A stretch of DNA of 61,884 nucleotides, filler included, from Dirinaria sp. TL-2023a (lineage: Eukaryota): NCBI GenBank assembly GCA_051941275.1. It is 2 parts of 2 records of this genome, joined end to end, with 100 filler letters (N's around TTAATTAATTAA, not from the genome) between each part and the next. Parts side by side here need not be neighbours in the genome. Positions count along the whole stretch, not along the records: positions 31,000 to 61,884 come from JAVEBF010000100.1; 1 more part is not named here. One strand, given 5' to 3'. Under the pieces are notes generated by a model that searched no databases, was not told the origin of the DNA, and saw nothing but the letters and a program-made list of their open reading frames with translations. A program made the translations under genes and the position numbers. How positions within the stretch are numbered: the first letter of the stretch is position 1; each line of letters begins with the position of its first letter. Positions 10,792-53,800 of this stretch are shown in pieces.

Positions 10792-11163
10792 AAGGAAATG
10801 GTTTGATATACTCAGCTTGTTGGTCAGGCCTTATCATGACAGTTGTCAAGCTACTGCCTTTGTGCTCTCCTGGATCCGAGTGGTACCTGGAGGAACTGAT
10901 CCAAACAATGTTAAATCTCGGTTCCGAAGATCACTACTGCGGTAGACGAAGCTAAGACTTCTACAAAACCGATATCTTATTCCAAATCTTGCGAGAGACT
11001 CCTCGCAGATCATCTACGAAAATGAGAACTAACGAAAATCTCAAAGTGGTCATGCCATTGCGCAAGTCCGTTCATTGAACCTTTTCTGCTAAAAGCCTTT
11101 CATTTGTGTATGGTTATCTATTCGCTCAATCGAGCTTGTGGTTTCCGAGGTAGGATTTACACT

Positions 11164-11508
11164 CTATCTATCAGTCACACCCAAATCATCTAGGTCATCT
11201 GGATCTATGTCATCGGGGCATTGATCGACCCCCCAAAATTTTTTAAAGTTGCACCATTTACTTGCGCGTTTTGAAATCTTGGGAGTCCGTCGAGTCGATT
11301 GTGCAACGCCATTGCGCTTGTCTTCTTGATTGAGATGTGTAGTTTGAATGGGTGCTAGCAGTGTGCTCGATGTCGACGTGGTGAATAAAATTGTCGTCGA
11401 GGTCAGTGATGATACAGGGTACATTTCTTTGCTGATTGTGTAAGAGGGAGGAAGAGCCAGCGCCAGCGCTGATGCAAGGAGGAGTACGAAGAGAGGACGT
11501 GTCTGCAT
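11164..11508 (-). CDS. Small secreted protein with Kex2 (KR) sites, 114 aa
   Basis: N-terminal signal peptide (MQTRPLFVLLLASALALA), Ser/Thr-rich pro-region, KR/RR/KR dibasic sites, C-terminal 2-Cys peptide. Confidence 0.7.
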   Translation of the reverse strand: MQTRPLFVLLLASALALALPPSYTISKEMYPVSSLTSTTILFTTSTSSTLLAPIQTTHLNQEDKRNGVAQSTRRTPKISKRASKWCNFKKFWGVDQCPDDIDPDDLDDLGVTDR

Positions 11509-12149
11509 GTTGAATAGATCGGCGAGTACTAAGCGTTTCGATAGCGAAAGTCGTAGAGGTGCTCGATATTTCGATCTGGCAAATGTGCTTTGAAAGTAAG
11601 GCTTTTCTAAGGTCGGCAGGTGGCAGGAGAGATCGAGTACTTAATCAACATGACTCTCAAAGATAGCTGTTCAAATAAAGTATGGCAAACAAAGAAAGTC
11701 ATGATCTGCGCAGAGGCTGCTGCCTTTTAAGTATCTTTGTTCTTTGTTGAAACAAAGTCATTGTCCGGTTGATGTTCGAATACTGACTGTGTCGCACCCT
11801 TCTTTGAGTACACAATGAATTCAAGGTTTCAAGTATTGAAAGTTATGGAGTGCAGTGGATCTCGACTCTCATGCTATCTATTCCCAATATGACACTTTGG
11901 TAAGTGGAATTGTCTCGGCTTTTGAGACAAAGATGAAGAGTGTGATATTAGATTCAAAATTCCTTCGACACAGCCTCCAAGCCATCAAGATCAATCACGT
12001 CGCAAGATCAGTCGTGGAAGCCGCCAAAACGATGAGACTTTCTTGTGTTTCTAGTTAATATCAGAATTGAATAATGAGTCCTTTCTCGCAAGATGCTCTA
12101 GATCTTCATTCGGATTCACTCGTCACGCGGGTGGAACTTTCTCGATACG

Positions 12150-12420
12150 TTAGCTAGTGAACAATCGAGGTGTCGTCATCCAGGTAAACCCTCTCTTATG
12201 AGATGCCTGAGAGTGAAGCTTGCAGCAGGAATCAAAGGCGGCGGTCGACAAGCTGGGCAAAAACAGGGTAGGTGAGGAATGAGTAGATGGCGCGATAAGA
12301 CTGCGAGAGAAGATTAAACTCAGCAGAGCTGGCATCGATGAAGGCACCGAGGATGGCTGCTACAGGTTCGAAATAAAGGAATAGAAAGCGGTGAAGTCGA
12401 GCGGTGTAAGCATGACAAAT
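12150..12420 (-). pseudogene. Remnant of a small fungal membrane-protein gene
   Basis: One frame reads HRFLFLYFEPVAAILGA...YPVFAQLV, then stops; resembles a recurrent fungal 'FLYxEP' membrane family (recalled from memory). Confidence 0.3.
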
Positions 12421-30899: not shown

Positions 30900-30999
30900 N
30901 NNNNNNNNNNNNNNNNNNNNNNNNNNNNNNNNNNNNNNNNNNNTTAATTAATTAANNNNNNNNNNNNNNNNNNNNNNNNNNNNNNNNNNNNNNNNNNNN
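30900..30999. other. Scaffold gap with artificial six-frame-stop spacer (N44-TTAATTAATTAA-N44)
   Basis: Exactly 100 bp, symmetric Ns around TTAATTAATTAA (30944-30955). Confidence 0.95.
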
Positions 31000-33193: not shown

Positions 33194-36100
33194 CATCGTA
33201 CTCTACCAAAGTATCTACAGTCCCTTACATAAGGTACATACATCATTATCTTCAGGGCTCAAAAGGAAACAACGGCGGCTCACTAGAGTTTCCCTGTCTG
33301 TTACCTCATGCAGCATATCTGCCACACCTGTCAAAACAAGCCACGAACGCGGCAAAGGCGATCAAGCCGCTGGCCGTAAATAGACAGTCTGGACCGGTCG
33401 GTGACGGGTCACCTTTCAAGCCACCGCCAGACCAGCGATGTCATGTCTGTTCAAAATTCCATTTTCCGGATCCCGCTTCCTTTCCGTAACCTGGCGATAG
33501 TGGAGGCCCATTCCGGTGTCTGCGACCTCAAACAGTCGCCCAATTACCAATCGAGCCAAAGCCGAGGCCCAGTATTCCAGTATACACGGGACAGTAGAGG
33601 TCAATTGACCACTGCGCACCACCATAATCTGCCTTCTACGCTCGCCAACTCATCAATCCACCACATGACTCGAACTCGTAAGGCTGGTGACAGATAGCTT
33701 AGCAAAAAGCGCATATCCATCATGGTCACTATCGTCACCATCGTCGTCGTCATCATCATCATCATCATCACTCGCGGCTCTGAATACTGCGGATTGCATT
33801 TTCGTACACCACCAACTCGTTCCCCGCCTTTGCCTATTCCAGAAAGCATTGAGCGTCGGATAATGACAATTTTCTCGGATGCGCGTCGACTTCAATCGAT
33901 ACCAACAAGAACCGGCTAAGTGCTCGAATTTCCTCCTTCAGACGCTCTCATTCTACGCCTAGGTAGGGCTTTGCGACGGTTTAGGAATATTTATTTCTAG
34001 TGAGGAGACGTGCAGACCAGTGCCGGATCCTCATGCATAATCTCCAGCCCTTCTGGTAGTCTGCGTAACCAAACGAACCATGGTAGCCCTTCCCGAATCG
34101 TGCGTCTCGTTACCGGATTTTCTTTCGATATGAGGCTGCTCCATCTGCAGCTATATCGCACAAAGGACGCGCGATCCAATCAAAAATCCAGGAGCCTGCA
34201 ACGGTGGGTGACAATTGCAACCAGCTGTAGGTCATATGCAACCATGGCCCCGGTACATTTCATGCACGAAGACGACATTATCCACAGCGTACCTGTGACC
34301 CCCACGGCTAACTTTTCCTTTGACTCGTCGGATAATGGGTCTTGTAGAGATAGGTGGATCTCCTATGCGACCTATCCCACAGTCTAAATCTCTTTCATAC
34401 GACGTTCCCGCCATCTGCTGCTACAGTCGATGGGTAGCCGACCGGAGATGGGACCCTCGAGGACGAGTCGAACCGGATCTATCTTCACGGCTGCCCTCCC
34501 GAGCGAGTCGGCGGAGACGGCGACACCCTTTCCAAGTTCAGGAACTGGTAGAACCCGTAGATCACCCATCTGGCACACCATCTCGCTCAGTGTAAGCATC
34601 ATATTACCCAGGAATGCTTCTGCGGCACGACCCGATGCAGAACCCTTAGTCTGTTATATTCTTCAACTTCTAAAGCATTCGCTCGAACATTAGTCGTCTC
34701 GATAGCTTGGTTTGCCTGTGCGTTCTTTTCATTGGCCGAGCACCGCCTCTATGCAATGGAAAGGGTTCCTGCTTCGGCGTTAAGGCATGCTCTGAACGCT
34801 TGAATTGTCAACTAACATGCCGACCCTTGCTTGTTGTATTTGTACTCGTTTTCGTACCTCGGTAGAGGAGACAGAGGATGGAATTTCAATCCGGTTTTTG
34901 TCTTCTTCCCTCAGCTCTCGGTCTCTCAACAGAGCAATGCAAGCTTTAGCTTGAAGTCACCAAATCATGCCCCAACACAGGCATCTAGGGTTCGGGATCT
35001 CGCCGCCGTGTACGAGTACCCTTAGTAGGATCTGCACCAGAAAGGATTTATTGCGTCGAGCACTTTCGAACATTGCGCCTGCTCTCCAAATATTGAGTCA
35101 GAGTGCGGGATCGTATTCAGCTACAGCTCGCAACCGCCGTACAGACTACATGAGCCTTTCGGATCAAAAACCGTCCATCTTACACGCATTTGCCACATGG
35201 CTCAGGTCAAGGAGCCCTCATATGATATTTCGCCGACCAGATGCTTAATCGATTTCGGCGACACTGACTTGTAGAAATGTATCTGCTCGTCTTGTTTTGA
35301 AGGCACAGTCAAGCCTGACAAGCATGTCGCCTCGTTTGCCCTTGAAATGTGAAAGTTACTACGGTGGCAACGCAGCGGCTCTTGACGAGTCCATCGAAGT
35401 TTACACCCACTTTTATCCCCAGCGACGATCATTTAAGGACATCTACCTTACATTTCTGTGCCGAAACCCTTACGCTTTAACGGATCATCATCTGAAAGAC
35501 GGTAGATAGTCAACGGACGATCTTATCAACGGTAAGTAATATCTCTGTCTGTTACTCATTATTACGACCTAGGATTGGAAATCAACCATGCAACTTTCCA
35601 AAATGCTATGTCGCTCAGGGTTTCTATAAATTTCTATCACTGTCTATCTCTTTACTAATACACTTTGTGCTTTGGAGCTCGGTTTCTTGCTACAGCTTCG
35701 TGAAGTAGACCTTGATTACCAAGCCTTAGATCACACTACCTATACCTTGCCGAGCCAGCTTCAACTGCTACTCGTTGAACACGCTTCGGTAGTAGCTGAC
35801 GAACTGGCCCTGGTTTACCTGCTTGTCTGCTTGCTAGAGTAATGTCCGATGCCGAGCACCATGCTGCCTAATATCCTCGATGACCCTTGCCGCACAGCAT
35901 CGACTGATAGGGTTATGACTATGGCACATAGATATAGCAAGGCGAAATGCTTGACTGGGAACTCTGCCTTGCCCTCTCAGACCGAGATGTAGATTCGATA
36001 CGCAATTCGTGCTCAATTGCTCAGCTTCTATACAAGTGTCAAGGGTTGTTTGATGGATGTAAGGTAGGGTCCCTTCAACGGTGGGGATAGGGTAAGGTCG

Positions 36101-39100
36101 TAAGGTAAGGTGTGATTGGCTCATTGGCTATAACTCGGGTTTACTTGTATCGATACCTTGAGCTTGTGTTTTACCTGAGTACAGAATAACCTCACGGTCT
36201 CCTCTCTTACATTAATGTTTGCATCAGCACTGAAACAGCCAAGCCTGCTTTCTCCTTCTCTTGGTTCACGTTTCTCACTGGAGTCTATTGCTTGATTGCA
36301 CAGAATGAGTCCCAATCGTACCCCAGACCTTGCTTAGGAACGTACATGTAGGTACCTAGAGCTCAAGTATCATATTTACGTCACCGGCACAAGCTGACGG
36401 AGTCTTTCTTTTTCCGACGCACGAAAACGAGTCGCCGCAAAGTCCTTCCCTCTCACTCCAAAGGCAGCGCAATTGGAGCTTGCCTTGGCTCCTTTTCCGG
36501 AATTTGCTTCCGAGACTGCTGGCAGAGGCGATGCTAAGGTACCTTACAGCTATCTTACGCTTCGATACTCGTTAGCTTCTAGTTTCCCTCTTTCCTTGCC
36601 GCCCTCTACCTCGTTGATAATCCCTCTCGCTAAGCTTCGATTGAAACCTGAATTCGGCAAGAAGCTCTAGAGGATAACATCCAAGATCAATCGTTGCAGA
36701 AGTCTAGCACGCCAAGCGAAAGTTCCCTAAGTATCCTTTTCAGGGAGCATTTGATCCAATGAGAATCCGAGCCTCTACATCAGCAGCAGCCCTCCATCTT
36801 CAGATCGCTTTTGACCGATTATAGAATTGCCCAAGCATGGCTATAATTGACACTGATAGCTACTAACTCACATCGATGCCGGGACACCCATAGTCATTTA
36901 TGAAGGAGGAGAGCTTGCCTTTACGCTTTCGATTCCGTTCGTTGCTGTTATGTATAAGCCGGATTTTGTGGTCCGCTGTGTAGTCGGTGCCGGGGAGGCG
37001 GGGACGATGCTGCAATGGTATGCAATCAATTACATCGATCCTGCCCAAGCGCCGCACTATCTATCGTGTACGTGAACGGCTTCAGATCAGTGAACGGAGG
37101 TATGGATGATAGACTTATGATCGCGCCGTCTACTGGCTAGGGCTATTTGCGGCGCTTTGTCGAAGATCTAGAGGACGTTGACGCTGACATGGGACGGTCC
37201 TTAATGTGAGCTTTGGGAGAGATCAAAAAGATACAGAGTGCTGCACCATCAGGAAAACCATTACTCAAGGCTCGCTGGCTGGTTTTGATTATCCCAACGC
37301 TTTTAAACGGTGCACCGGACCTCCCCTCCTTTGCTTGTCTATGCATGCAAACTCTGACAACGAATATGTTACTAACATTCCCCCACCGGGCGGCTTATCG
37401 GGCGTACTTATTCCCGCTCGTGATCGCGATCGCTCGATGGCCACTCTTACCACGGGGCTTAGACCCGCTTTCGGGCCCTTGTCGGTTTGACTGTGGCTCC
37501 CATAACTGAGCGGAGTTTGATAGCTCTTATTACTTATCCGATATGAAGGTATAGAAACGATGATGAAAAAAAAAATATGAGTTAATTATGCGCCTGCTGC
37601 CTTCATTGGATATGGTAGCCCTAGGGCCCACGATGTTACTGGATGTGGGTCCAGCATGGAGCGAGGAAATGCTAATAGCCGTGTAATTTCATAGAATTGG
37701 TATCCAACATATGCTCTGTTAAGTCGGTAAGTTCAGATGGGTATATTTCTATATATTAATCGGATGATGGCTCGTGCCATGCATCCCTATTTTCTTCTCT
37801 TCAAAGGGTCAAACCCGCCTCAAACCAAGCTTGCATCGCGCAAAATTCCCCACAGTGGATCGAATATATTTAGTGCAGAGCTATGCAGCATAAATTCGAT
37901 ACAGATATATCTATTAGACTCTCGAGTATAATCACACCATCTTAGCCTCCGCAGTCTTTCGCAGAAATATCAATCATAAATAATAAGCCAACAAATAAGC
38001 CATCAAACACAAGAAAAAGCTCATATAATTCAAGATTTCTAGGTCAAACTACTTACAGGATGTATTTATCTAAAAACATGGATCCTTAAAAAGCTCCTTC
38101 AACCTTTTACTCAGTAGTACTCAGACTTTCTATCTGACAAGCTTACCCATTATCCGCTCGCTCGCCCTTCGAGAGGGTAGGTAGAGACGGGGAGGATTGT
38201 TCCTTTAAGCCGCAGATTGCGGGTGCTGAAGGGAAATGGGATTATTCTTCACATTCTGAAAGCGAAGCCTGCTCGTTTCCAAGGTTAGGGCTTTTTAAGA
38301 GATCGGATGTGCTACCGAAGCCGAAGCGAAAAGCGGGTATAAATCGAACTTGTCAGGATGTTTGATTGGAACCGGTTGCAAGAATCCTACCATCCAAAAA
38401 GCAAAGGATTCTTGTGAGGTAGGTCTTGGGGGTAAGAAGTGTGTACTTATCATTGTAAGAGCCTATGTATGTAAAGCCCAAAAAATGCAACTAAGGTAAG
38501 TACTAAGACAGGCAGATGATTTCTAAGATTTTCAAGCAGCTGCAAGAGGCAAATAGCAAGAGAATGCAAAGGAAAGTGCCCCTTGACGACGTCTCCCCCC
38601 CCACCCCCCTCTGACAAAAAAAAAAAAAAAACGCCCTGCCCGCGATCTTTCCAATATCACTTATTGATAAATAGCCATACATACTACTGGTACCCTCTCA
38701 TTTCAGACGACTCTCTTCGATTCTTTTTTCCCTAATATCTTTTTTTCTTCGTTCATCGATGCATACCCCTCCTGACAGAGACCACCCCAGAACTCATAAA
38801 CATCCTCCTCGGCCACCTTGCCATGTCCAACTTTTTCCCTGAAGATGTGCATAACTTGTAAATTCGATTTCAAACCTAAATCATACACTCTTGATGAACT
38901 TCGCCAACGCCACCATATCTGGATTAATATCAGGTTTCTTTTTAGTGCGTTTTGAGAATTGGTGGTGGTGGGAGGTAATCCAACGGGGGGGGTTAGATGC
39001 TGGATCCTTGGTTTTGGCAAGGGTAATGCGATAGATTTATTTTGCGTCATCAGTGATGATGAGCGACAGGGGCGATAGATGCGACAGAGACGATAGTTGG

Positions 39101-41159
39101 CATCGATGAATCATTGCGTTCACTAGTAAATGTAGCGATGTTTTTGATACTAGTCATAAGGACTGGGGACTCGTTCTACTGTCAGACAGAGATTGCGTGT
39201 ACGACAGCGGTCCTCTCTGTTGTACTCGTACCTTTGGATGCCTTCGGTGTGGGTATACTTCCAGAATGTCATCTTTTAAGAATCCGGTTCTTCATGGCCT
39301 TCGATGGATCTGGCTATAGAAGTCCCAGGTCGGAATTAATTAGTAGGCAAGAACAGCCTGTTTTTAGATAAAGTGAAGGTCGTAGCATGAGGGCCGATAG
39401 AAATTTTTCAGGATCGAATCTAGCGTGTGATGTAGTGCGTTGAGTTCAGCGTTTGGTGGGCGCTGTTGAGTGGGTTTGGGTTAGATAGGATAGATTTATC
39501 GAAGTCTTTATGTCTCTTGTGGAATTTCCTTTGACTTTTAGGATATTTCTTGGACTCTTGATCTGCATCTGAGAGATATTCAGCTTTGGGTTATTGAGTT
39601 GTTGATTAGTCTCTCTGACATAGAATACCCATTCTTTAAGGAATATACGGATTTTCGCTAGAAAAAAGCTCATTGCGTGACCAGCTGTGAATCACCAGGA
39701 GTTTCTCTCATGAGTGAAATCTTCATTTTCATGGAATAGCGCTTTGGCGCGCATAGGTCGTGGCCATCGACGTTCTTGATGGTGTCGCTTATCTACGACA
39801 AAACTACCTTCTAAGAAAGAATCTGCTACTCCACAACGAGTCTAGCCGCTGTTGCCAGTCAGTTTTCTCTTATCGTTCACAATCTGTCGGACCAGAGCCT
39901 TGAATTGAATTTCATTGATCATTGCTTTCATGTTTGAACGCAATCGTCTGCTTTTTGTCGGCATTATGGTGATTCTGGAATGGATTTTCTTCTGGATCTA
40001 TCGTATGGCTCTCGCTAGGCTTTCAAATTAAAGGGTAGTGGTAGCTGTGATTTGTTGTGGAAATGTATGATATGTGGAGGGGGTGTTTGTTTGATTTGTT
40101 GGACATATCTCGTCGATTGAGGATTTGAAGCGCGGTTTGCGCATGGTGCGGGATGTTTATAAATAACATGTTGGAATAATTCGTCTGGAGATTTAGATCC
40201 ATGCTCGAAGCAGGTTGATTAGTGAGGAGATAGTTGAATGGGTTGAATCTAGGTGTGGTATATCTTTGGATCTGGTAGATAGCGACGATCGTAGTTGAGT
40301 AAATCAGTTCAGTCTCCGATTTGAAGAACTTTCATCTCGGTGTAACATGAGGATTCCTTGGACACCGTGCCCAAGCGCGTGTCTGTAGTTTTTCTTCTTG
40401 GTCGAGAGCGCCATTTGGGCCCCTTTATGATTTCACATCCTAGCCAGCATGGAGGTTTAACAGCAGAACTCTCCTGGAGAGTTCCAGATCTTAATACTAT
40501 CTTGGTTCCAATCGTGGTTCTGTCTCTGCAACGAGGAAAGTAAATTTTTAGGGATATTATTATGTAAGTAATACTTCTTCAAACTGAGAAAAAGTCATTT
40601 AGTGTCTATCTCGTCATAGTATTATGGTAGTAGTTTTAAGGATCAGATCGGAAATTGAGATTAATAACGATTGAGACGTACTCAGAAGATGTTTTCCCTT
40701 AATGGATGATTAGATTTCTTTGAGCTTTTTTACATTGGAACAAAGATCTTTGAGTTAGGAGAAGCAGTGTTTGAAGGTGATAGATTAATCGATGTAGGCA
40801 AAAGCGCCACTGGTGCTTGATCTGCAAACAAATGTGTTAATCATCTCGTTACTGAGAAACGATGGGGTTACTTACTCGAGAAATTATACAATTCTGAACA
40901 CCAACGAATTAGTTCTTAAAAGTAAATTTAAATAGAGAGAGACGATTTACTTTTCAAGTCGTCGTTGCATCTTTGAAAATACCAGTCTATCGTGACAGAA
41001 GAGACACTCGAGTTTGTGCTCGCTGCAGAGATCTTTGACCTTGAATTCCACAGAATAACCTCTCTCATGACAGAGAAAAATCTTGCTTTTTACCCTCCAC
41101 CACAACTTCCGCAGTCATTTCAGTCCAGTGATTTAAGCGCATGGTGACTTCTGTCGCTG

Positions 41160-42375
41160 AGAGACTCAATTCGGAAATCATTCAATGGAGCGCTTTAGCG
41201 TGTCTTTGTGCTTCAGTATGATCGCGAGCGAAATTAAAATTCGAAGAGTATTTTATTTCATAGAATTAAGTAGAGTTATTCTTGGTAAAATGCATCAATG
41301 AAATGAACTCATCGACATTTGAGATCACTTGTCTCGATTGGATCGGTCAAACTCTTTTCCAATTTATCATGTGGCGTCGAGCGTTTTCTTCTGGATTAAC
41401 TCGAGTTTATTAGATTTTGAGAATGAGAGTAATTGATGTACTGTTCGATTCTTAAAAAAGATACTTGATTGGATGTATGATCAAAGATCAGAGCTCAAAG
41501 TAAATAAATTCGCATGGAGGTTTGGAGTAGACTTTGTGCGAGTCTTGCACAACGTATGGTACCTGGCGCCTAGGAATAAGCTAGCGAATGTCGGATGTAT
41601 TCCAAATTCTTGGAGATCCTTCTTTTCTATTTTTCTCGTTGCTTCTTTGCAACTGTCTGGACCTAGAAAATGGCTGGTCAACTGCAGACTTGACAGTATA
41701 CACAGGACCTCTCTCTGTTGTTGAGCCAATATCGAGACCCATGTTTTGAGCAAATACTCATTTATAGAATACTGGGCTCCATGGTACTCGTACACGGCAC
41801 TGGGCAACACCTCGGCAAAGAAATTCTGGATTGATTGAAGAAAAACATCAAAAAAATCAAAAAAAAAACTCATCGATTTGATAAATGTTGCGCAAAACAT
41901 TCGCTTAACAATTTGTTTCTTCGTTCAATTTCTCTGTCTCGCGATGCTCGGATTCGCAGCGAGATTCATGCCCATGATTTTTTCAACATCGTAAGAATTT
42001 TCGTCGCGAAGTTTAATTCTTTTTTCGACAGTAAACGAAGTTTTCGTATTCGCTGCAAGAATGAACAATTTTTTGCGAGTTGTTACTGGCTGCAAAATCT
42101 GATCATATGTGTGATCGATCCTGAGAACTCGAATAAAACAAATGCGTCGTTGATTTAAACGAATGACGCGATCGACGATTTAAGAAACGTTTTGAAAATT
42201 CGTGAGAACGTCGATCAATACGACATTCGAACAGTTTTCGTACAAATTCAAAACGATGACAAAGATGCGAAAAAAAAATGATTAAGATTTGCACATGATT
42301 ATTAAAATCATTGAAGGAGTTTACAGCGATTTCTCGATCTGTCGTTTTATGTCGCGCACGAATTTCAATCACATA
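41160..42375 (-). pseudogene. Hypermutated SNF2/SWI2 helicase C-terminal domain remnant
   Basis: IEIRARHKTTDREIAVNSFND...VQILI, (frameshift) VLNLYENCSNVVLID...QNVS*IVDRVIRLNQRR = degraded motifs V/VI (GLNL; QAxGRxxRxGQ); several stops and frameshifts; boundaries approximate. Confidence 0.7.
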
Positions 42376-44699
42376 TTCTGCACAGTCTCAAAGAAATGAT
42401 CAATTAAGAAGAGAATGGAGACTTTTTTTCCGTCGTTGCTCACCCTGTGCAGGAATTTTGAAGTAGAATTGCGAATTGAATCAGTCAGTCTAGGCGCAAA
42501 AGGCGTCAGCAAAAGCTTTGAGTGCAGATGCCTTAGAAAATATTGAGTAAGGTAGTCATCACAGGAGACAAGCGGACAAAAGTCTAGGAGGAAGGAAGAG
42601 GGTAATCTTGTACGAGCCGCTGAGAAGCGCTTTCACATATTCTGTAGAGTGCCAGAGGTTGGCAAATTAGTTCGTGATTGTTGCTGTACGGGCTTCGAAT
42701 TCGAATTTCTCTCTTTCTTTGTCGATTTCTTAGTCCATTCTTCTCGATTTACAGTCAAGCTCGCACGCGAGCATCTTTCGAGATCTTTTTGTTGGTGAGC
42801 ATCTTATCACGATTAGGATGGTATCAGAGACAGTCGTAATTCTGACCACGATTTATTTAGCATAGCGATGCTCGATGACGACAACGACTCTCACTCGATC
42901 AGTTTGGTAAAGGACAGTGAAAATCCTGCTGTACAGTTGAATTCTGTCTCCTCGTGTTCTGGGGAACGTTTTCATGTCCTCAGACGATATAATGTTCTAT
43001 AGTCTTCGCGCAGCTTTGACTATATTGATTTTAAAGAATGTGGTGCATTGAAACCTATTGAGATCTGAGAGCTAAGATTTGCTGGCAACGAGGAATGGCG
43101 AGATTTTGATATGTACCAATTCTGCCAAGGAGAAACCCACACCATTTAACCATATCGCAATAGGTCTGTCGTCATAGACGATTTCTTGCTCAACGTCGAG
43201 CACACAGAGTGTATTTCGATGTCGATCTCAGACGAGATACCAGACATAGCAATAACGGAAGCTTATGTTTCAACATCTTTTTCAAATCGCCTCATGTTCG
43301 AAAGTCGCGTCTTTCGTTTCTTGAATCATAGCTATTAAATCGTCCCGAGTTTTTTAAGAGCGGTATCTCCCAGCTTTAGCAACTCATAGTAATTCTGGAA
43401 ATACAAATAGAAATAGATTCTACTGAGTAATTTAATATAAGCCTTCATCCCCGGGAAAACAATCGAACCTCTGAAGTTGAAGAAATTAGCACTTAGAGAC
43501 CGTCTCGAATATCCGTTTTATGTGATTCTGAGATCGGAGTGAAGCAAGTCATGATCTTTTACCTCTCGTTGTAAAGAGAAAGGAAGTGTCAAAAGGCATT
43601 GGGCTATTGATTTTCTCAAGGAACTCTTCAATAATAAGTACTCATCACTGCAGCGTGCTTTATGTCAATGGTGTCAGCGCGTTCGAGCGCCAAATTCGGT
43701 GAAATTATCTTTGCGGCTGCTTCTTCTCGCCCAATCACGTCGCCATTAGGTCCTCTTAGATTTCTGTATGGTTGCTCGGTCGTCCGGATTTCTAGCAGTT
43801 CTGTGACAAGCTCAGTACAAGGATTCTTATCGTTCAAGGACCACTCAGTCTCTCAAAGCTGGAAAGTCTCTTCAAATGTATCTGAGGAGGTTTTCGAGTT
43901 GGCTGTCTCATATCGCAGCAAAGCTAACAAAAAGCTCGAAGTCGTACCTGTACTAAGTCATTGTTTATGGGTATCAGCTGTTCAACAAATAGAGTTATGT
44001 GAAAATGCTGGCTGTTGGAGACTGTGACGTTGTTCTGAAAGGTTGGGGTGAGTGGTGAGGTGGTACTTGGACAGTATTCTCTGTATCTAGGACAGACCAG
44101 TGGATTGAAGATAGAGAAAAGGTAATTCAGAGATAAAAGAATTTTCGTTCCAGTCTTTTTCGCAATGTCTAACTTCCGCTTTGTCGCGCTTGGTCTCTAG
44201 TAAAAGTCGTCCGCTTTTTTGGGATCATATCCAAACGAGAAACCTTCTATTGGGTTCCAGAGAGGTTTTTCAACCGACCAGCACTTGCTTTCTTTGCGCT
44301 GCAGACCTTTGTCTCGGACTTGGAGGTATCTTAGCTAATTCGTATCTTTGAGGAGTTAGGCGAATAACTGCTGCTCTATATCTTGACTGAGGTCGCCCAA
44401 ATGAGTGATGTTAGTGTTGGATCTGTAAATTTTCTCGTCAAGCTCGGTAGCCGATGTGAGCTTTTACTTGACCGTTCTTCAAGAGATCTTTTGTAGACGA
44501 GAAGGATCTTGCTTCAGCCCAAGCTCAAAAGCTAATCCATCCCCTGTGTTGATGGCATGAGTTATCGTGATTTGAGTAGCGTCGACCTCCTTCTGCTTGA
44601 GGTGTGGGCTGAGGCCCCCTCTCACCCTTTGGAAGACAGTCGACTTTGATTTTTTGGGTGAGGTATTCCTTTCGCCTTATACTAGGCAAAACGCTCATT

Positions 44700-44998
44700 G
44701 AATTTTCATTTGAATCCCGTTGTAGGTCATCAAAGGAGTTCAGAAGGGCTATGTATCCGTCTTTACCATCCTTCCAAAGCCCCTTGGATAGGGACTGCAT
44801 GGTTTCAGTGGCGAAATCGGTCAGGTCACAATCGGCGTCGAATACAGTCCTTGATAACCCGTCTATAATCTTCTTCCGTGATTCAGAGACATATTGAATG
44901 ATGATATTGAGTCGGGGTAGTTGGTCAGCCCAATGATCGTAGATACCCCCGTGTACATTTCGAAGAAGCTTCTCTGCTCCTTTTGCGCACTTTTCCAT
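44700..44998 (-). mobile_element. Ty3/gypsy pol fragment (end of RNase H plus linker)
   Basis: HWADQLPRLNIIIQYVSESRKKIIDGLSRTVFDADC...LWKDGKDGY resembles RW..L..Y...I.Y.PG..N..ADGLSR and the WKDGKGG linker of fungal gypsy elements. Confidence 0.6.
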
Positions 44999-47273
44999 CT
45001 CTCATTTTGAATGAGTTTTTGTGACAAAAATTGACTGAGCGATTAATAGATGAATAAGATATTCGATCCATTTAGCACGTTAAAAATTGATATTCTTCCG
45101 AGTCATACGACGAAGCAGTAGAAAAATACCTATCGGATGAAGTCGAACGTTTTCTCAATTGATGCATTCAGCAAAGATTTATCACAAAGGTCAATCTGAA
45201 TGAGAAAGATCAATTGACTGATCGAAAGCAAGTAGGGCCTTTCTTAATGCCATGTTCTCCCTCCGCTGGTCCTTGCAGATGAGCTCCGAATGTCACCTAT
45301 GCGAGGATATCAGCAGATGGTGATTAAAAAAATATATCAAGCTAGTGTCTGAGCTCTCGTCTAAAGCTCAAAGAGGGACGACAGAAAAATAGCTGTACAC
45401 AAATTAGTTGAATCACATGGTAGTAGTACAAGGCACGTAAACAGCACTAGAATCAACTTACTTGTCTTTCTTTTAATGGCACTTTGTACTCTGTTTGCAA
45501 AAATTAATTTCCAAAGTTGGTCAGTCTTGCCAAATGCCCATAATGCTCAAGAAGCATTATTCCCAGATCTTCCTTTTGGGCATAGTCGTGGACGACTTGA
45601 ATCTTGTTAATGTCTCGCATCGCGGCAACTCTTCTCCAATTAATTCAATCCTCGTCCAACGCCTCTTTGATTTCTCTTCCAAGAATCAACAAACGGGCCG
45701 CCGAAGAGCACCTTTCCACCATAATTATCAATAGAGAAGGCCGCTATCGACCACTGGTTATCCGACCTCGTACGCAAAGATTGCAAATTCCAGTGTCTCA
45801 AGGATTATCTCTCCAGTTCTCCAAGACATTGATCAAGTGCTAGCCATAGCACGGTTTTGTCTGTGAAACAAAAGCATATCCCGCCATTCTCCGAAAACAA
45901 GAAATGAAGAGCTGGCTCGAGCATGAATACTAATGAGCTTACGTCTTATCATTATTGTCCAATGAAGTATTGTCGATATGCACACCTTTACTTATGTGTA
46001 GCTGCTTGACCTCTTGCTTCGTGCCCGACATTCGACTGATTGAACTTGACGGCAGATCCAGAGGTGTAGAACGATCAAGATCCCAGCCGATGACCAGCCT
46101 CCGCCATGTGATCGAATAGTACACGCAATTTAATTGCGCTGGGGCCTCAGTAATGTCAGAATGAGATTGATCTCGAGTTTGCTCAGGCTAATAGAACCTT
46201 TCGGATTGTTAACGCGGAGTTTTGTTATCGGCTAGAAAAATGACTATGCTATCTATTCTAGACACAATTTTCGAGCTTATTAGACAAAGCATGGGTCTAT
46301 AAAGTATACTCATTAATATTCTGCGAGGAATCAGGACTCGACACGATGATTTGTACACGGGCGCCTTTCTTCAGCAATCAAAATTGTTCGAGCAATTACA
46401 TGGGATCTGTGCGCTCGTATGAACAAAATAAGGACATTGCGGTAAAGAGTTGCACTCTGAATAAATTCGCAAATTTTGAGACAAGAAATAGAAGTCATTT
46501 AGCATATGCTGGTGGAGTAGAATAAGTGTGCAAAATATTCGAATGATGATGATGATGAAAGAAGCGAACGCGATTGATCAACATTGAGAAGAGAGAGAGC
46601 TGAGGCTGGAAGACGCCTGTCTCGTATACGAATCGAAGTAATCATCTGACGGATACCGACAAATGTTCTAACCTGGAATAATGAGACAATACCAAAGATA
46701 GACTAGCAGTGGTAAGAGGGACCTGGCCACTGTATTGCTCGGCGCTTTTGATAATCTGTGCTTGGCAGATACAAATCCGTTGAGAAATGAAAGGATTCTG
46801 CCCACTTCTTCCAGTGCTGCAAAATCTAAAGCATTCATGACGAGAGAAATTGATGTATTATTGAGATTTGATGTATTGGCATCCGCATTGCACAATCAAA
46901 AAGTAGGAGAGAAAAGTGTTGTACTGTGTGAGGTGAGGTAATGAAAATTGGAAATTTTGATGCCGAAAAAGCTAACCGTATCGGGCTAAATCATGAACAG
47001 CCTTAGTAAGGTAATCGGCGGCCGCCCAGGTCTTTGAACCTCGAACAACCATGTCCCAGGCTCCGAACCTCCTGAATATCTCTTAAGTATGCAAGCGCAT
47101 GAAGTTCATTAGCCATCTGAATGCCTGTACCCGCCGAGAGGACGATGAGCGCCTGAAATCTTTCATGAAAACCCCGCCCAGATTAGGTATCCGCCAAAGT
47201 CATAAAGGTACGCATAGTCATTACTCTTCAGGCCCGGTTTCTGATCTTGCAATCTAGTAACCCACCCTAACCC

Positions 47274-48717
47274 CTACTCATCAGATATATCCGACATTTC
47301 TATGTCGGCATTCTCCGTCTTCGCTTCTTTGAACGCTGCTTCCGCTTGGCTCATCATGTTGGCAGTGGCTTCCTCGTCAAGAAAATGATAGGTGCCTCTT
47401 GCGGCTTTGATCGCCGCTAGACGCTTCTTCTGTCCGGTCGGGCCCCCGAGATGCGTTCTCAGCCCACCCCATGAAGGCAGGTACTTGGCTGGCTGACTCC
47501 TTGGGCAGTCAGAAACAGGACAGGGAATCCCAAGACGCGGCTTGACAGTGGGGGGCTGGAGAACGTTCTTTTTCGTGAACCGCACATTACAGAAGCGCTC
47601 TCCTTCTTGGACCTCCTCCAAAAAGTGGGTCAGTACGGCGGCATGGCTCATTATAAGGTCTCCTGGCATTTGAGCGATCTTGATGCCGAGTTCCGGGAAT
47701 ACGATATGGCCTCCCTTGAAATCCCCCCAACAGTTCGTCGTGGTCCAATTGTCGCGAGCGTCGTTGGGGTCCTTGTGCGGACCGACGGCCATGTTGACTA
47801 GTACGACGAGCCCCGAATGACATGCCTCGGGCCCTTGGTAAAGGTGCTTGAGCGTGTCCGGTCCAATCTCTTGGTACCGCTTGTGGAGCTGTTCGTACTT
47901 CCTGGGATCCAGCACGGAGATCCACTTGGCAACCTGGTTATGCTCCCACGTTGTCGCTTCCATGAGGCTCTTCACCGCATTCAACCGCTTTTCGCCCGCC
48001 GGGTTGGCATGCTTATGAAGCATGGGCCCCAAATCTGGCCGACCGATCCCATAGTGGTACATGAGGTGCTGGACAAGATTTCAGTCAGCTGCATCTCGCA
48101 AAGCTCAAGAGACAAGAACCTACCAGTCTACCCCATTCTTTGCCCATCGCTCGCCACTTCTCCTTTTGCGCTTCGTGCTGATCCACTCGGGAGTCATCGG
48201 GCTTTGGGGGAATCGGAGGGTACACCTTTGTCAAGGCTTGAATTGCAGCCACGGAAGTCTTGGTCGATTCTTGCTGTTTGTTGAGATCCAATCCAGCAAA
48301 CATGCCGCCTTTGATGAAGTATAGCATCGGCGTCCCATCCTTACACTTCACGACGATGCTCTCGTGGACGACCGGATAATCTTCCGCTTCGCGTCGGTAT
48401 GTTTCTGCTGCCCCTTCTTCTTTCGATACCTCTTTGATTGGGCCTTCGAAAAAAGCCGAAGAGTTCTTCGGAAAGGTCTTCACAGAGCAGACCGCTTTGT
48501 ACTCCCCAGACCCGAGAGTCTCTTCGCCATCGTCACGCAGGATCTGGGCTGTCTGTCCGGTGAAGCTGAGAAGGGTTAGTTGGCGGAGACGAGGAAGCTT
48601 GGTCTGCGTCTGTGTCTTTGAAGCATCTGTGGACTTGACCACGCGGGAATCTTTCACTATCTTGAAAAAGCTTGGAAGTCTGTTCTGCACTGGCTTCGTG
48701 TTCTTCGAGGGTGCCAT
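47274..48717 (-). CDS. TET/JBP-family 2OG-Fe(II) dioxygenase with C-terminal C2H2-like zinc finger; exons 48717-48124 and 48068-47274 (~462 aa)
   Basis: VNMAVGPHKDPND (HxD, 47769-47777), CWGDFKGGHIVFPELGIKI, PGDLIMSHAAVLTHF (distal His), GERFCNVRF (2OG-binding Arg); 55-bp GT-AG intron with GCTGAC branch; tail CPVSDC...LRTHL. Confidence 0.8.
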
Positions 48718-48830
48718 ACTGTTCGAAACGGATATCGGACAAGCAGGTATTCTAGGAAGCTACGAGCAAGAATCGGGCGGAAGAGTCGAGGGTGATAAGC
48801 TTAAGGTCAAAAGCAAGATGGGATTGACGA

Positions 48831-48914
48831 CGCACAACCAAAGACTCGGTTGATGAGCCCGAGGGCTAGAGCGAGATAAGTATGATGCCGCACAACAAAG
48901 ACTCGGTTGAGGAG
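48831..48914. repeat. ~26-bp direct repeat pair upstream of the TET/JBP gene
   Basis: CGCACAACCAAAGACTCGGTTGATGAG (48831-48857) and CGCACAACAAAGACTCGGTTGAGGAG (48889-48914). Confidence 0.8.
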
Positions 48915-50156
48915 ATTGAAGACACGAGCAAGAAGAGATTGATGGAGCCCAGAGAGAAAGCCACGATTGCACAGCCGAAATAGATGCTTCTTAAGAACTA
49001 GAGATGCTGAGGTAGAGAAGAAAGAAAGGAAGGAAGAGATTGAGATCGAAGACGGTTTCTATATTCCCCAGAACCCCACTTTTGAGTCAAGTTCATCTCG
49101 TCTTCATTCGAGATTGATGCCTAGTTCAAAAAATGAATCGATGGCGTGATTGCTATGTAGTATATAGTATGTTCGTTTGAATTGTAAAGTGAGTATTCGT
49201 TTTTTGAAATTCATTTTTTTATATCCGAGAATGTGAATATGGGTTGTCAGCTGACGAGAAATCGACTTCAAAGAACTATTCATTTTTCGAATGAACATTA
49301 CTGCATTTCAAACCTTCACTTTTTTTTCTTTTCTTCGATGAACAGTATGGAGATCTTATATGCTTGGGTTTTAGAAATCTTTTCAGCCACGAGACTGATT
49401 TTGCGCAGATGACGCACATGTGATTGCCAAGACTTCGCAAATAATGAAGACAAGCTCTGCAAATCACACTGCCAATCAAGCGGAGTCACATGCTTCGACA
49501 GATGATCTTCAAAATTCATGCAAGATACATACATGTATTGTGATCTTGTTTTTTGAAAGAGCAACTAAACAACGAAAACTCTCTGTACTAACTGACAATC
49601 ATGGGTAATGCTGGTGAGGAGCCCAATGCAGTGTGTGTAAGATCATGCATAGTATCTTTCTTTGAGCTAGAGAAGCATTACTGCCCATGCACAAAGCACC
49701 ACATCACAGGTTATTCTCCCAGACCAGTCCGCTTTGTCACAAAACGTGATTTCACTAATCTCACTCACACGAATGTTCATAATCTCTTTCCTTAGCTAAG
49801 ATATCAGCACCATACTCAGAGATATCAGACATGCAGCTTTCGATCTTTGAGAAAGCGTGGCTTGAGAATTCCTTTCTTGTTTGATCTGACAATCCTTCTT
49901 TGTTCCACCCTTGATCATGGTTCTTCTAAGGCTTTTTCAATGAAGATTTTCTGTCATTGTTCCCAACAATGCTTTTGTCCAAATCCCGATGATGTTTATT
50001 ACGAGCCTCCTGCTTCAAAAGTTGTGAGCTCTGATATGCACTGACTGCTTTTCATTCGGCGCACATCGAACAAACTGTTACAAGACTTCTAACAAGTATC
50101 CAATCCCGTTTTTCTGGCCATTTGTTGCTAATTGGAGAGCAGACGAACAGAAAATC

Positions 50157-50858
50157 ATGGTTTATCAGAAGCTTCGCGGTCTAGCGCAGACCGTTGTTCC
50201 AAAACGCTATCTCTCCTCGGATCAGGCGCTGAAGAATACATGTAAGTGTGAAGACCCTTTCTGCGATAACCATGAGACAGGAGACGAAGAAGATCTGAGT
50301 CAGGAATGGGCCTGGATGGATCAAGAGTCTGGGCAAGCTAAGAAATCCATTCCGAAACAAGCTGAGAAGCCCATACTGAAACAAAATGGACAGAAGCGCT
50401 CTCAAGAGACGAAACAAGCACCCTCCAAACCGATCAATGCCCCAGATGACTCTTCCCAGACCATGGCCGTCCCGCATCTTCCACCAAAATCTACCTTCTG
50501 GCAGAACCCCCGTACGCGGGCACGAGATGACCTCCTCCTTCTAGCCGTAGTACAGCCTCCTCAATGCGACGCGCCTCGCTGCCCTCTAAACCAGGCGCCG
50601 TACAACATCCCGCATATGAAAGGTATATACGTGCACAACGGACAATCGCTGAGCTTGGAACTTTCGGGACACGTGTCCAAGTATCTGATGTCTATCATCG
50701 ATGATTTCGGAGGGTCCTTGCCCCCCTTGGGGATATGGAAGGCTTATGAGAGGATGGTGCGGCGGAGGGCTGAGGAGGGGGATTCGGAACTCGTGGTTGG
50801 ATTCTTTAGGAGCCATTGTACTGCGGAGGCTTGTGAAAAGCTGTTGAAACGGTTGTAG
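50157..50858 (+). CDS. Hypothetical protein, 233 aa, with Cys/His clusters
   Basis: Intact intronless ORF with good ATG context; CKCEDPFCDNH and CDAPRCP...H..G.Y.H motifs. Confidence 0.6.
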   Translation: MVYQKLRGLAQTVVPKRYLSSDQALKNTCKCEDPFCDNHETGDEEDLSQEWAWMDQESGQAKKSIPKQAEKPILKQNGQKRSQETKQAPSKPINAPDDSSQTMAVPHLPPKSTFWQNPRTRARDDLLLLAVVQPPQCDAPRCPLNQAPYNIPHMKGIYVHNGQSLSLELSGHVSKYLMSIIDDFGGSLPPLGIWKAYERMVRRRAEEGDSELVVGFFRSHCTAEACEKLLKRL

Positions 50859-53800
50859 GTGATGGGCTGAGGATTCGTCTATCTTGGATAACGGCGTATT
50901 CGTTGGTGGTAATTTGCTCCATTGCCGAGTAGAGGATAAAGGTTAAGGTGGTTCCACCTGTTAACGAATATCCTCACATAGACAATATAGGCGGGTCTTG
51001 ATTGCTCATGTATAGCCAGCTTCAGATCCCAGCAGCTATCTTTACCAGATTGTAAAAGATCTGCACTTGAGATTCTTTCCCTCCGAATCTGCTCTAAAAT
51101 GTTCCACGCTCTCGAGCGCCGCCATACGCATTCTCCAGACTTTAGCTCGTGTACAGTTTTTGCCTTGTAATCTCGTGTATTCCTGAGTCTCGAGCCATGA
51201 GCATTGTCTCACCTCGAATTCTGTGCGCTTCAAGGCCTCTGACCATCTATGTTGCCTTCAACGATATAGGTTTCCAGGGCTTGAGTCGTGTGCATTGCCG
51301 GGTCTCGGGCCACATTAGATCCTACTCCTTGTCGTGGACATTTCTTGTAGTCGTATTTGCTGTCTTTGGCTGTATAGATTCTTAATATGCTGAATCTGAC
51401 CAAGCGGTCGCCGCCTTCAGTATGCGGTTTCCACTTTGTTTCTAACATGCTGCTGCAGTCTCCGCTGCTACCGCGGTTTCCGCTTCAAGTCTGCCATCCG
51501 AAGCGCCTTTCTAACCATTTCGGCGTGCTTCATGTCAGAAGCTGATCTTTAGCTTTTTCGATTAACGTGCTTGGGTTTCTGGGTGTTATTGGCGCTAGGT
51601 GCAGCATTTTGATGCGGATCCTGCTTGTGCTGCTCGGACATCCGTGCCCAGTCCTATGTAGTTGGATTTGGCACTGACGAGGCCCCTGTTGAAAAGGATG
51701 ATTTCAAGGCATCGAAAGTACGTGGACAGCATACATCTCGACTAACCTTTCCAACAGAAGCAGCTAGAAGTGACAGGCTGGGCATGATTTCCGAGAGCGG
51801 CACTTGCATTGCGTGGAGAAGCTGGGCATAAGCAATGTTGCAGCTGAAGTGATTTGAAGGTCGCCAGTGCTCCTTTCTCGGCATTGTTCAAAGAACTAGC
51901 AGCTTTGGGCCATTGTATGAATGATCAAGTAGCAGCGCCTCCTCGTGCACTAGCTCTTCTTCGGCAGCGACTCTTACCTCAGGTCGCAATTCTACAGCAT
52001 CGGCTGCTTTTGGTCCTGGTTCACAAACCATTCTCGCATCCAACGCTCTATCGGTATCACCCAATGGCTCGACTCCAGCGTCTGAGGACAGTAAAACTGT
52101 ATAGATGCCTGATATCACCTCACAGAGGCCATTGATGCGATCTCGAGTGCGCATTCTGAGACTATCGTTGTCATGACTTATAGGTATGCGGTCGTTTCTA
52201 CGCACTCAGCTGACCTAGGGTAGCCCGATTTGTGGTCCACTGCTTGAACCTTCTCGATGCACTTAGCACTATGGGTAGGTCTCCCCGATGGACTTAGCAG
52301 CATGAGCAGTGTGTATGGATGAGTATCTAAGGCACCTCCAACATCACCTTTGGCACTTCCACAGCTGCTTCATTATCGCATTTGTTATCGCATTGCGGAA
52401 GCGCTTTTTCCTACCCATTCATTGCAAGTATCGGGCGGTGAGGTAGAGGGAGTTGTTGGCGTTAGAGGCAGCTTGTTTTGAGGCAGTTGTTGCTTACTAG
52501 TTGGGCGCCGTTAGCACCGTAAATGCCCCAAATTGAAATACAACATGACTTTTGCCAATGCTAGTCCAATGAGGCATCGAAAGTACTTCTTGCGTCTCTT
52601 TTAACTACAACCCTCTCTGCCCGCACATCAGCAGCCGCTATTCCTGTGCCAAGCGGCTCTACCGAACGTGGCGGCAGGAGAGGGTCCACGTCTTCCTCGT
52701 CCTGCACCTCTGCAGATCAAATCGTACGCAGTAAATATGGCAAAAGTTTTGCATGCGGCCCGTTGCCGATGAAATTGCCTGCCGAAACGGGGCAATCGTG
52801 CGGGTTTCCGACATGCGAGGGTGGAGGATGTGTGGGTGGGGTTTGGTACTAGGAACTCAATTGGGCGTTTGGGATTTTCGATCCTCAAGCTAGGATTAAT
52901 TGAATGATTGCTGTCGGCATGTTTTGAGAGTAGAGAAAAAAAAAAAAAAGGTTTCATCATACCTGAAGCTCTTGCATGTCACACTCAAAAACCTTGTGAC
53001 CATGTCGAGTAGGTAGCTCCGGGTCATGCTCGTAACAAGTAGGTAGTTCTGAAACTCGTCCCCTTTCCTCCTCCTCCTCCTCCTCCTCCTCCATCCTCAC
53101 AATGGACATCGGCCAGATTGGCGTTACAGGGAGACCTACTCTATCCTACGCTCAGCCATGGTGCACTTGCCAGCTTTTTCCCATAAAGTTTCACGCCTTG
53201 CCATCCTGCCCAAGTCGCGCTTTCCCTCTCTGAAATACCTGGCGGTACTCTTTGACGGAAGCTTTTTTTCGCCTAGCTGTAGGCATTTCATAGCTATGTT
53301 GTTTATCATCATGGCGCGAATCTGTTCATTGACAAACTCCGACAAAACGGGTGCACCGAGCCCATGCCGTAGTTCGGAGACAGTTGACAGCATACACCAC
53401 ATTCTCGTGTGCGTGAGATGTCACTGCACCTCACAACGATGATGCAGGCAGCAACTTTAGGCAGGATGTGGTCGCATTATTTGATGGTCAACTGGCATAA
53501 GTATTACCTCAATAAGGCACACATAGTGCGCGCTAGATGCCCCTTTGATGCCTGATCCCCGAGGTTTTGCCGGAATGGCCACTGCAACATTCTCACTCGC
53601 TCGACTATGCATATGTGATACAACACCTCGTGCCTTAGCCTAGCGATCGACGTGCAGAAGACAGTCATTTGTACAAAGTAATAGAAAGTGGGGAAGAATT
53701 CCAACAAAGCTAGTGATCGAGCACAGATACCTAGCATAGCAGGTGGAACGGGCCCCAGAAGCGTGATGTGGTATACGCAGTATCACCGCAAAATCATCGC

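Follow-up and report, generated by a model that had tools for sequence, protein, structure and literature searches.

Introduction

According to a 2026 review (PMC13297926), the only characterized fungal TET enzyme is CcTet of Coprinopsis cinerea (PDB 7vpn, 7w5p, 8jkk), which is bifunctional for 5-methylcytosine (5mC) and N6-methyladenine (6mA) (PMC11040006) and represents the AG type of Kojima 2025 (PMC12730594). As described in the last of these sources, relatives of CcTet are carried by Kyakuja and Zisupton transposons, and the TET/JBP genes of Pucciniomycetes, Agaricomycetes and Pezizomycetes ride 11 transposon lineages; that source and the 2026 review assign fungal TET/JBP genes to Basidiomycota and, as transposon-borne genes, to Pezizomycetes, the latter being the only ascomycete TET/JBP genes they describe. 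Here we analyze a TET/JBP-like gene on the minus strand of a 61,884-nt stretch of DNA (referred to as “the window” below) from the lichen-forming ascomycete Dirinaria sp. TL-2023a (assembly GCA_051941275.1). We consider it fairly probable that this gene encodes a nuclear Fe(II)/2-oxoglutarate TET/JBP dioxygenase that oxidizes 5mC, and that it is a vertically inherited chromosomal gene of the Lecanoromycetes rather than the cargo of a live transposon.

Outside the fungi, NgTet1 of Naegleria (4lt5, 5cg8) and human TET2 (4nm6, 9hxv) are conventional 5mC oxidases; they have the fold predicted for the window protein, and their HxDxx[D/N] motif carries the Asp or Asn that reads the N4 group of the base. 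CMD1 of Chlamydomonas (7cy4-7cy8) also has the TET fold and an Asp at the same position, and it puts a glyceryl group from vitamin C onto 5mC (PMC12730594). The PE type of Pezizomycetes is marked by HxE and is carried on Helitron or IS3EU elements (PMC12730594). Our literature search for TET enzymes or 5-hydroxymethylcytosine (5hmC), cytosine methylation or repeat-induced point mutation (RIP) in lichen-forming fungi or Lecanoromycetes brought up no relevant paper among those listed, although an earlier mention of ascomycete members is possible.

The window protein resembles CcTet, its best profile and fold match, in several respects: both are fungal proteins whose TET core is compact (about 400 aa), and both carry the triad HxD...H and the arginine of the GER motif. 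However, the two are only 14-18% identical, Gly331 and Asp337 of CcTet are replaced by Asp and Thr, the aligned CcTet chain has no C2H2 tail, and the window gene lacks the transposon context of the CcTet relatives. TET2 differs by its zinc-braced insert, rich in Cys, and by a second, large insert of low complexity, and NgTet1 has no finger, whereas the window protein has one YY1-like finger after the core and a basic leader before it. The PE-type proteins are likewise from ascomycetes, and one from Ascobolus immersus is a distant match of the window family, but the window gene has HxD and no element was found with it. Within the TET/JBP family, the window protein thus has a variant architecture with a C2H2 tail, and its gene has a host-gene rather than a transposon context.

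Gene structure

The gene and its parts are the following.

47274..48717, minus strand: TET/JBP-like gene, whole coding region, 462 aa in two exons
48124..48717, minus strand: exon 1, 198 aa; basic disordered N-terminus plus the N-terminal strands and helices of the TET fold
48069..48123, minus strand: intron of 55 nt, GTAGGT...CTGAC...CAG, GT..AG, phase 0, read from the sequence
47277..48068, minus strand: exon 2, 264 aa; double-stranded beta-helix core, zinc-finger tail and acidic C-terminus
48568..48717, minus strand: basic leader, residues 1-50, probably disordered; candidate nuclear targeting region
47595..47795, minus strand: catalytic core with N290, P295-H296-K-D298-P-N-D301, T307, G317-G318, G334-D335, H346 and G354-E-R356, near-invariant in 101 relatives
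47385..47522, minus strand: divergent C2H2-type finger C381-x4-C386-x17-H404-x21-H426, with invariant residues and a YY1 profile match

Two open reading frames (ORFs) on the minus strand, 48759..48085 and 48080..47274, are joined via the intron to give 198 + 264 = 462 aa. An earlier, sequence-only reading of this DNA had given the gene bounds, and the start (ATG at 48717) and the stop (TAG at 47276..47274) of the ORFs and translations fall exactly on them; the gene is also, as that reading had it, GC-rich with normal CC/GG content (54% GC, observed/expected ratio 0.98). The intron, which it had called clean, has canonical signals in phase 0, with identical position and phase in two positional orthologues from lichen metagenomes, L001 (49 nt) and L005 (196 nt), both of which are GT..AG. 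Moreover, the exon junction is colinear with an annotated 444-aa orthologue from Dirinaria sp. (P0009), without a gap across the junction. The join is further supported by the stop that is met 13 codons past exon 1 when the intron is read through. To this extent the intron stands as described, but a spliced form was not seen, as all three RNA contigs across it are unspliced. The intron of the orthologue differs in length even between L004 and L005, two loci that are 99% identical, by 79 nt (275 vs 196 nt between the exon matches, 9725-10000).

Family assignment by sequence and predicted fold

On its own, window exon 2 matched the Pfam family Tet_JBP (PF12851) with 22.5 bits (E 7.4e-5; cutoff 34.9), and exon 1, which is 49% identical to residues 1-201 of P0009, had no match in a Pfam scan. 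The relatives speak more clearly. A word-indexed search gave 27 relatives, nine of them with a precomputed PF12851 domain, and HMMER, run exhaustively, returned 332 cluster representatives at E<=1e-3, of which 79 reached 1e-10 or better. Of the 101 relatives that were aligned, 78 matched Tet_JBP with an E-value of 1e-3 or lower, the best at 5e-17. When a profile of this 101-member alignment was run against solved structures, the matches were CcTet (E 2.6e-13 and 1.5e-12) and NgTet1 (2e-10), and no other enzyme family appeared below E 0.3. An ESM Atlas search with P0009 gave best scores of 0.77 and 0.76, under the meaningful level.

The predicted fold was compared with known structures using two models: an AlphaFold2 model of window exon 2 (mean confidence score, pLDDT, 93.8), which represented the spliced window protein, and a full-length model of P0009, about 50% identical, as a stand-in for the whole chain. 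The latter had a pLDDT of 86.7, with residues 1-51 under 50 and values above 90 from about residue 60. Foldseek matched the exon 2 model to CcTet (2.1e-8), CMD1 (6.7e-6) and NgTet1 (1.1e-5), with TET2 at rank 47 and the first unrelated oxygenase, a prolyl hydroxylase, at 2.3e-4. VIA-align 2, a structure search that does not rely on Foldseek, matched the same model to CcTet (Z 13.4 over 168 aa, 2.9 A), NgTet1 (12.6) and TET2 (11.6), followed by FTO at 8.9 and with CMD1 ninth (Z 8.1). With the P0009 model, the four top matches in Foldseek were CcTet (1.9e-14 over about 300 columns), NgTet1, TET2 and CMD1, and the same four led in VIA-align 2, with Z scores of 22.9 (259 aa), 20.9, 19.9 and 17.2, respectively; FTO came next at 13.2.

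The part of P0009 equivalent to exon 1 is folded in the model and aligns, together with the C-terminal half, onto CcTet residues 30-401. Because the full-length fold matches, exon 1 would supply the N-terminal half of the TET fold. The best structural matches are therefore CcTet, NgTet1, TET2 and CMD1 rather than an oxygenase that acts on something other than nucleic acid, and the TET/JBP assignment first proposed for this gene is borne out by both sequence profiles and fold tests. By predicted fold and by its motifs, the protein is a member of the TET/JBP family.

Active site and substrate pocket

The complete HxD...H...R set that had been noticed in the protein is present, and the columns N290, P295, H296, D298, D301, G317, G318, G334, D335, H346, G354 and R356 are at least 90% conserved in the 101 aligned relatives (H296/D298/D301/H346/R356 of the whole protein correspond to H98/D100/D103/H148/R158 in exon 2 numbering). 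H296, D298 and H346, the iron triad, align with the metal ligands H326, D328 and H376 of CcTet, and G-E-R356 aligns with the G-E-R of CcTet. In the TET/JBP family, an arginine downstream of the second His binds 2-oxoglutarate. The alignment with the CcTet core also covers the positions of G331 and D337.

In bifunctional CcTet, the residue three after the HxD is Gly331, so that 6mA can be accommodated (Zhang et al. 2024, PMC11040006). The same source gives this position as Asn1387 in human TET2, Asp234 in NgTet1 and Asp350 in CMD1, where the side chain hydrogen-bonds the N4 group of 5mC and clashes with 6mA. The window protein has Asp301 three residues after the HxD, where the conventional 5mC-specific TETs have Asp or Asn. 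This is the rule in the family as well: PHxDxx[D/N] occurs in 132 of 175 family sequences (128 with Asp, four with Asn), and another 28 sequences yielded no motif. Six residues past D301 stands Thr307, without exception in the 29 close relatives; depending on how the loop is aligned, it would be the equivalent of CcTet Asp337 and human TET2 Thr1393. Section 3.4 of Kojima 2025 (PMC12730594) gives Gly/Ser331 plus Asp337 as the hallmark of the bifunctional 5mC/6mA AG type and HxE as that of the PE type. Neither hallmark has a match in the window protein, which has Asp and Thr at the aligned 331 and 337 positions and reads H-K-D in place of HxE. Because Asp301 and Thr307 occupy these aligned positions, the pocket would be of the conventional 5mC oxidase type. 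The nearest characterized relative is CcTet, yet the pocket appears, as far as alignment can tell, to be that of the conventional 5mC oxidases; such a pocket predicts 5mC-only specificity, which would make the window enzyme a natural contrast to CcTet.

A TET/JBP-fold enzyme with some other substrate or chemistry might look much the same, be it thymine hydroxylation (JBP-like, yielding 5-hydroxymethyluracil), 6mA demethylation, action on 5-methylcytosine in RNA or a CMD1-like transfer onto 5mC. CMD1 indeed ranks near the top of the structural matches and likewise carries an Asp where the window protein has D301, and section 3.4 of PMC12730594 leaves other cytosine and thymine activities possible for the uncharacterized fungal TET types. 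We regard this alternative as unlikely but not negligible, as an Asp at the D301 position reportedly keeps out 6mA and recognizes the cytosine N4 amino group, which is absent from thymine (PMC11040006), the bifunctional AG pair Gly/Ser331 and Asp337 is absent, and R356 in the GER aligns with the motif of CcTet, a 2-oxoglutarate-using enzyme.

Zinc-finger-like tail and basic leader

The CxxxxC...H tail that had been reported from the sequence is present and reads C381-P-V-S-D-C386...H404...H426 (C183, C188, H206 and H228 in exon 2 numbering); neither the four ligand candidates nor P382 varies among 29 close relatives. Searches with the family profiles hit YY1 fingers (E 3.3e-6 and 4.3e-6) as well as those of other C2H2 proteins, and a C-P-x-x-G-C...H-L pattern of the tail aligns to YY1/GLI-type C2H2 fingers. 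Pfam zf-C2H2 was matched by five of 101 relatives, canonical fingers being found in more distant members, and C-x2-4-C-x10-19-H occurs in 55 of the 75 members that have at least 45 residues after the GER motif. A canonical C2H2 finger has the form C-x2-4-C-x12-H-x3-5-H. The window protein has C-x4-C-x17-H, and neither it nor the rest of its clade has the second His three to five residues on, past H404. H426, 22 residues beyond H404, is the sole conserved candidate for a fourth ligand, and one might guess from the conserved residues that zinc is bound through it. We infer that the tail finger binds zinc.

At the other end of the chain, the N-terminus is basic, as had been claimed, with 11 Lys/Arg vs two Asp/Glu in residues 1-50. 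As a guess, this leader may serve nuclear targeting.

Orthologous loci, linkage and selection

A scan of metagenome contigs gave seven loci with orthologues whose exon 2 is 58-63% identical to that of the window. These lichen-metagenome loci are colinear with one another across some 20 kb and represent two or three taxa or haplotypes. One of them, L001, holds a multicopper oxidase, a PDZ-like gene, DUF7730 and a P450, and no transposable element (TE) domain was found in it. The window and the related loci have in common an upstream gene divergent from the TET gene:

50157..50858, plus strand: divergent neighbour, a 233-aa lineage-restricted orphan, with tblastx linkage in related fungi

The tblastx matches of the neighbour are in L001, L003, L005 and L006, with shorter ones in L004 and L007, and the neighbour proteins are 43-47% identical. 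The distance from the neighbour to the TET start is 1.4 kb in the window vs about 4.2 kb in the related loci. The neighbour has four relatives among 5.8 billion proteins, and the protein examined (P0185) has no Pfam or PDB match. The lasting linkage between the two genes possibly reflects a common promoter region or function. A relative of the neighbour (P0188) and a relative of the TET protein (P0008) may share one contig, the longest contig of each having 19953 bases.

The named close relatives of the TET protein are all from Lecanoromycetes (Dirinaria, Villophora, Kuettlingeria, Gyalolechia, Lecanora helva and Xylographa) and are all labelled “hypothetical.” Distant relatives include proteins from Watsoniomyces, Peltula, Candelina, Ascobolus, Glarea and the basidiomycete Rhodosporidiobolus. 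In Watsoniomyces obsoletus, P0070, P0180 and P0181 fall into one 90% cluster and lie on three contigs of one genome, and one member of the cluster bears the source name 'vacuolar protein sorting-associated protein 45'; this distant relative may be multicopy and is possibly transposon-borne.

Exon 2 is intact in all seven related loci. Its ratio of nonsynonymous to synonymous substitution rates (dN/dS) is 0.15 for L001 vs L002 and 0.09-0.11 for L001 or L002 vs L005; the ratios of exon 1 are 0.19-0.51 over the comparisons of these three loci. Over both exons, the ranges are 0.09-0.26 for L001 or L002 vs L005 and 0.15-0.51 between the near-identical L001 and L002. Comparisons with the window itself are saturated at synonymous sites. 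A test of dN/dS had been suggested from the sequence, and among L001, L002 and L005 it shows the TET gene to be under purifying selection, which is strong in exon 2. Taken with its linkage, it looks like an ordinary conserved chromosomal gene without sign of transposon carriage.

Chromosomal setting in the window

The sequence-only reading had placed the gene in a hypermutated TE graveyard, with CC/GG-depleted relics on both flanks, and had supposed that it sits in, or shields, a mobile element. The analysis of the window does not bear out the graveyard or the mobile element, and confirms the depletion in part only. Two portions, 1-34 kb and 50-62 kb, are ordinary fungal chromosome with genes for MFS, TauD, alpha/beta hydrolase, RTA1, fungal transcription factor, amino-acid permease and tyrosine decarboxylase proteins, and a stretch at about 34-47 kb is gene-poor with low GC. 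Pfam found no TE family in 100 stop-to-stop flank ORFs of at least 55 aa, and no match at all when the 3.3 kb directly downstream of the gene, 44000-47273, was read through in all six frames; a Pfam read-through of 35400-39300 on the plus strand gave just a phosphoketolase fragment, and the minus strand of 34000-44000 was covered by the ORF scan only. The sole above-cutoff match in the flanks was a fragment of the phosphoketolase N-domain (XFP_N, 36860-37072, plus strand, 64 positions, 49.3 bits). It is an isolated relic of a host gene and not of a transposon, and the rest of that gene was not found nearby.

Neither repeats of the flanks nor a second TET copy occurs within the 61.9-kb window. 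An inverted repeat, 45010-45028 / 49733-49751, brackets the gene, but it was rejected as a terminal inverted repeat (TIR) on account of its chance quality (19 nt, 84%), and no other credible TIRs were found around the gene. RIP is indicated by TpA/ApT of at least 0.89 with (CpA+TpG)/(ApC+GpT) of at most 1.03. The composite index was negative in 62 of 62 1-kb windows, and TpA/ApT in the flanks was 0.47-0.80.

As for the CC/GG depletion, the observed/expected ratio is 0.72 at 48718-50157 and 0.73 at 39000-44000, in agreement with the earlier description. However, the 3.3 kb directly downstream of the gene is not depleted (0.92), and 11000-14500, far from the gene, has a ratio of 0.77. The mild and patchy depletion thus looks like a trait of low-GC spacer DNA and not like a mark around the TET gene. 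In the three spacers (39000-44000, 48718-50157 and 11000-14500), GA/TC has an observed/expected ratio of 1.29-1.35, with neither a deficit of CpG nor an excess of TpA. Such a pattern would be compatible with C-to-T change at the first cytosine of CpC and differs from classical RIP.

These observations bear on the idea that the gene is the present or very recent cargo of a DNA transposon, that it shields the element from methylation-based silencing, and that the flanks are the decayed element. The idea has precedent in the 11 transposon lineages that carry fungal TET/JBP genes (PMC12730594), and the three Watsoniomyces members on three contigs and the gene-poor, low-GC 13 kb downstream of the gene would agree with it. 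We nevertheless consider it quite improbable: the flanks are without transposase or other TE domains in ORF and read-through scans, the TIR search gave just the one chance-quality pair, a second copy and a repeated flank are both missing from the window, the linkage to the same neighbour has been kept across fungi although the neighbour proteins are so divergent, the relatives' loci hold ordinary genes, and the PE hallmark HxE is absent.

RNA-library evidence

The RNA evidence consists of contigs, rather than raw reads, of one lichen library (three runs on one sample, one study) from a related strain, 90-99% alike. They cover the TET gene as follows, as well as the neighbour gene.

47082..49193, minus strand: RNA-library contig cover in the related strain, possible transcript span

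Cover is almost nil at 46000-47000 and nil at 49340-50174, and the low-GC spacers are bare. This suggests that the TET gene is expressed, and we go only as far as suggesting it because DNA carry-over in the library and loss of minor spliced forms during assembly are both possible. A skip in the contigs at 50818-50877 was rejected as an intron; it is an indel at the stop codon of the neighbour. Just past the stop of the TET gene, at 47207-47271, the contigs of the related strain hold 15 other letters in place of 63 nt, an indel polymorphism in the 3' untranslated region.

All three contigs over 48069-48123 are unspliced. Either intron retention or DNA in the library would account for this. If the intron is read through, a stop codon follows 13 codons past exon 1, and the locus might then not be functionally expressed, its retained intron giving a truncated product without the catalytic domain. 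This is very improbable in our view, given the low dN/dS of exon 2 (0.09-0.15) and its integrity in 7/7 loci, the conserved intron position with canonical signals, and the fact that contigs drop minor forms and that DNA may be in the library. Just as hard to sustain is a 2-oxoglutarate oxygenase acting on protein or a small molecule instead of nucleic acid: the double-stranded beta-helix is common to prolyl hydroxylases and others (Z 8-13) and Tet_JBP scores below its cutoff, but the four best P0009 matches are all DNA-modifying TET homologues, 4-10 Z units above the rest, the profile matches are CcTet and NgTet1 only, and a finger of the DNA-binding type is attached.

Proposed function and its implications

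With a chromosomal 5mC oxidase as the favored explanation, the enzyme might work as follows. Iron would be bound by H296, D298 and H346 in the double-stranded beta-helix and 2-oxoglutarate by R356. D301 would hold a 5-methylcytosine flipped out of duplex DNA by contacting the N4 amino group of the base, an arrangement seen in NgTet1, CMD1 and human TET2, and the methyl group would be oxidized to give 5hmC, possibly on to 5-formylcytosine and 5-carboxylcytosine. The C-terminal C2H2-like finger would bind zinc and either brace the fold or help place the enzyme on DNA, and the basic leader would carry the protein into the nucleus.

Several points weigh against this proposal. The Tet_JBP score of the window protein is below the Pfam cutoff (22.5 vs 34.9 bits). 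The assignment of the substrate would depend on one aligned residue plus analogy. The second pocket residue is alignment-dependent: T307 is set opposite CcTet D337 by spacing and profile alignment, and an ungapped NgTet1 alignment instead sets N305 opposite NgTet1 Ser238. A 5mC oxidase would also presuppose that the host has 5mC and a DNA methyltransferase. In the tail, the canonical second His is replaced within the clade (H-L-G-G-P), and the window protein has no Pfam zf-C2H2 match. With regard to the chromosomal setting, the 13 kb downstream of the TET gene is gene-poor, synteny between the window and the related loci is shared on the upstream side and not on the downstream side, and the gene is single-copy as counted within the window, not genome-wide. 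Finally, the message as read from the three unspliced contigs ends early, as described above.

If the proposal is correct, Ascomycota would have a host-side 5mC oxidase, in the form of a TET that has its own zinc finger and is conserved, selected and apparently single-locus across lichen-forming species. A broader and more tentative suggestion, possible though doubtful at present, is that lichen-forming ascomycetes, including Lecanoromycetes, keep a chromosomal TET-C2H2 protein as regular epigenetic machinery, that is, an active pathway of 5mC oxidation or demethylation. No such pathway is described for Lecanoromycetes in the sources cited here, in which the known fungal TET/JBP enzymes are transposon-borne (Basidiomycota, Pezizomycetes) or CcTet. 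It would be most interesting to know whether the DNA of lichen mycobionts contains 5mC and 5hmC, and whether the 5hmC is written by the window enzyme.

Divergence island in related loci

The TET orthologues of L001 and L005 are far more diverged than the genes around them.

L001:9340-10800 vs L005:9200-10770: divergence island, TET coding sequence

Between the two loci, the synonymous divergence (dS) of the TET coding sequence is 1.1 in exon 1 and 2.2 in exon 2 (dN/dS 0.09-0.26), vs 0.07-0.38 in the neighbouring genes (multicopper oxidase, the divergent neighbour, P450 and others). For most of the coding sequence (about 9450-10800, the start being near 9340) identity is 60-73%, and in its first ~100 nt about 82%; outside the island it is 87-90% upstream and 91-94% from about 500 nt past the stop. 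GC at third codon positions of the TET coding sequence is 0.57 vs 0.69 in the pair. RIP-like hypermutation was rejected as the cause, as 37-48% of the differences are transversions and there is no notable C-to-T excess. The island could be explained by old allelic lineages, by conversion from a diverged copy or by introgression. If the broader suggestion of a TET-C2H2 protein as regular epigenetic machinery holds, the island would point to old allelic lineages or repeated gene replacement, as for a component of a genome-defence conflict. A weaker island between the same loci lies in DUF7730 (L001:13047-13835), 2.3 kb downstream of the TET orthologue (dS 0.75, dN/dS 0.36, 57% aa identity).

Other features of the window

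A repeat search located one further feature near the gene.

48781..48951, strand not assigned: three degenerate tandem copies of a 56-58 nt unit

The units sit 64-234 nt before the ATG, where the 5' leader or promoter is presumed to lie, and are 64-71% identical to the reference copy. Far from the gene, two runs of 44 N at 30900-30943 and 30956-30999 mark a gap within the window.

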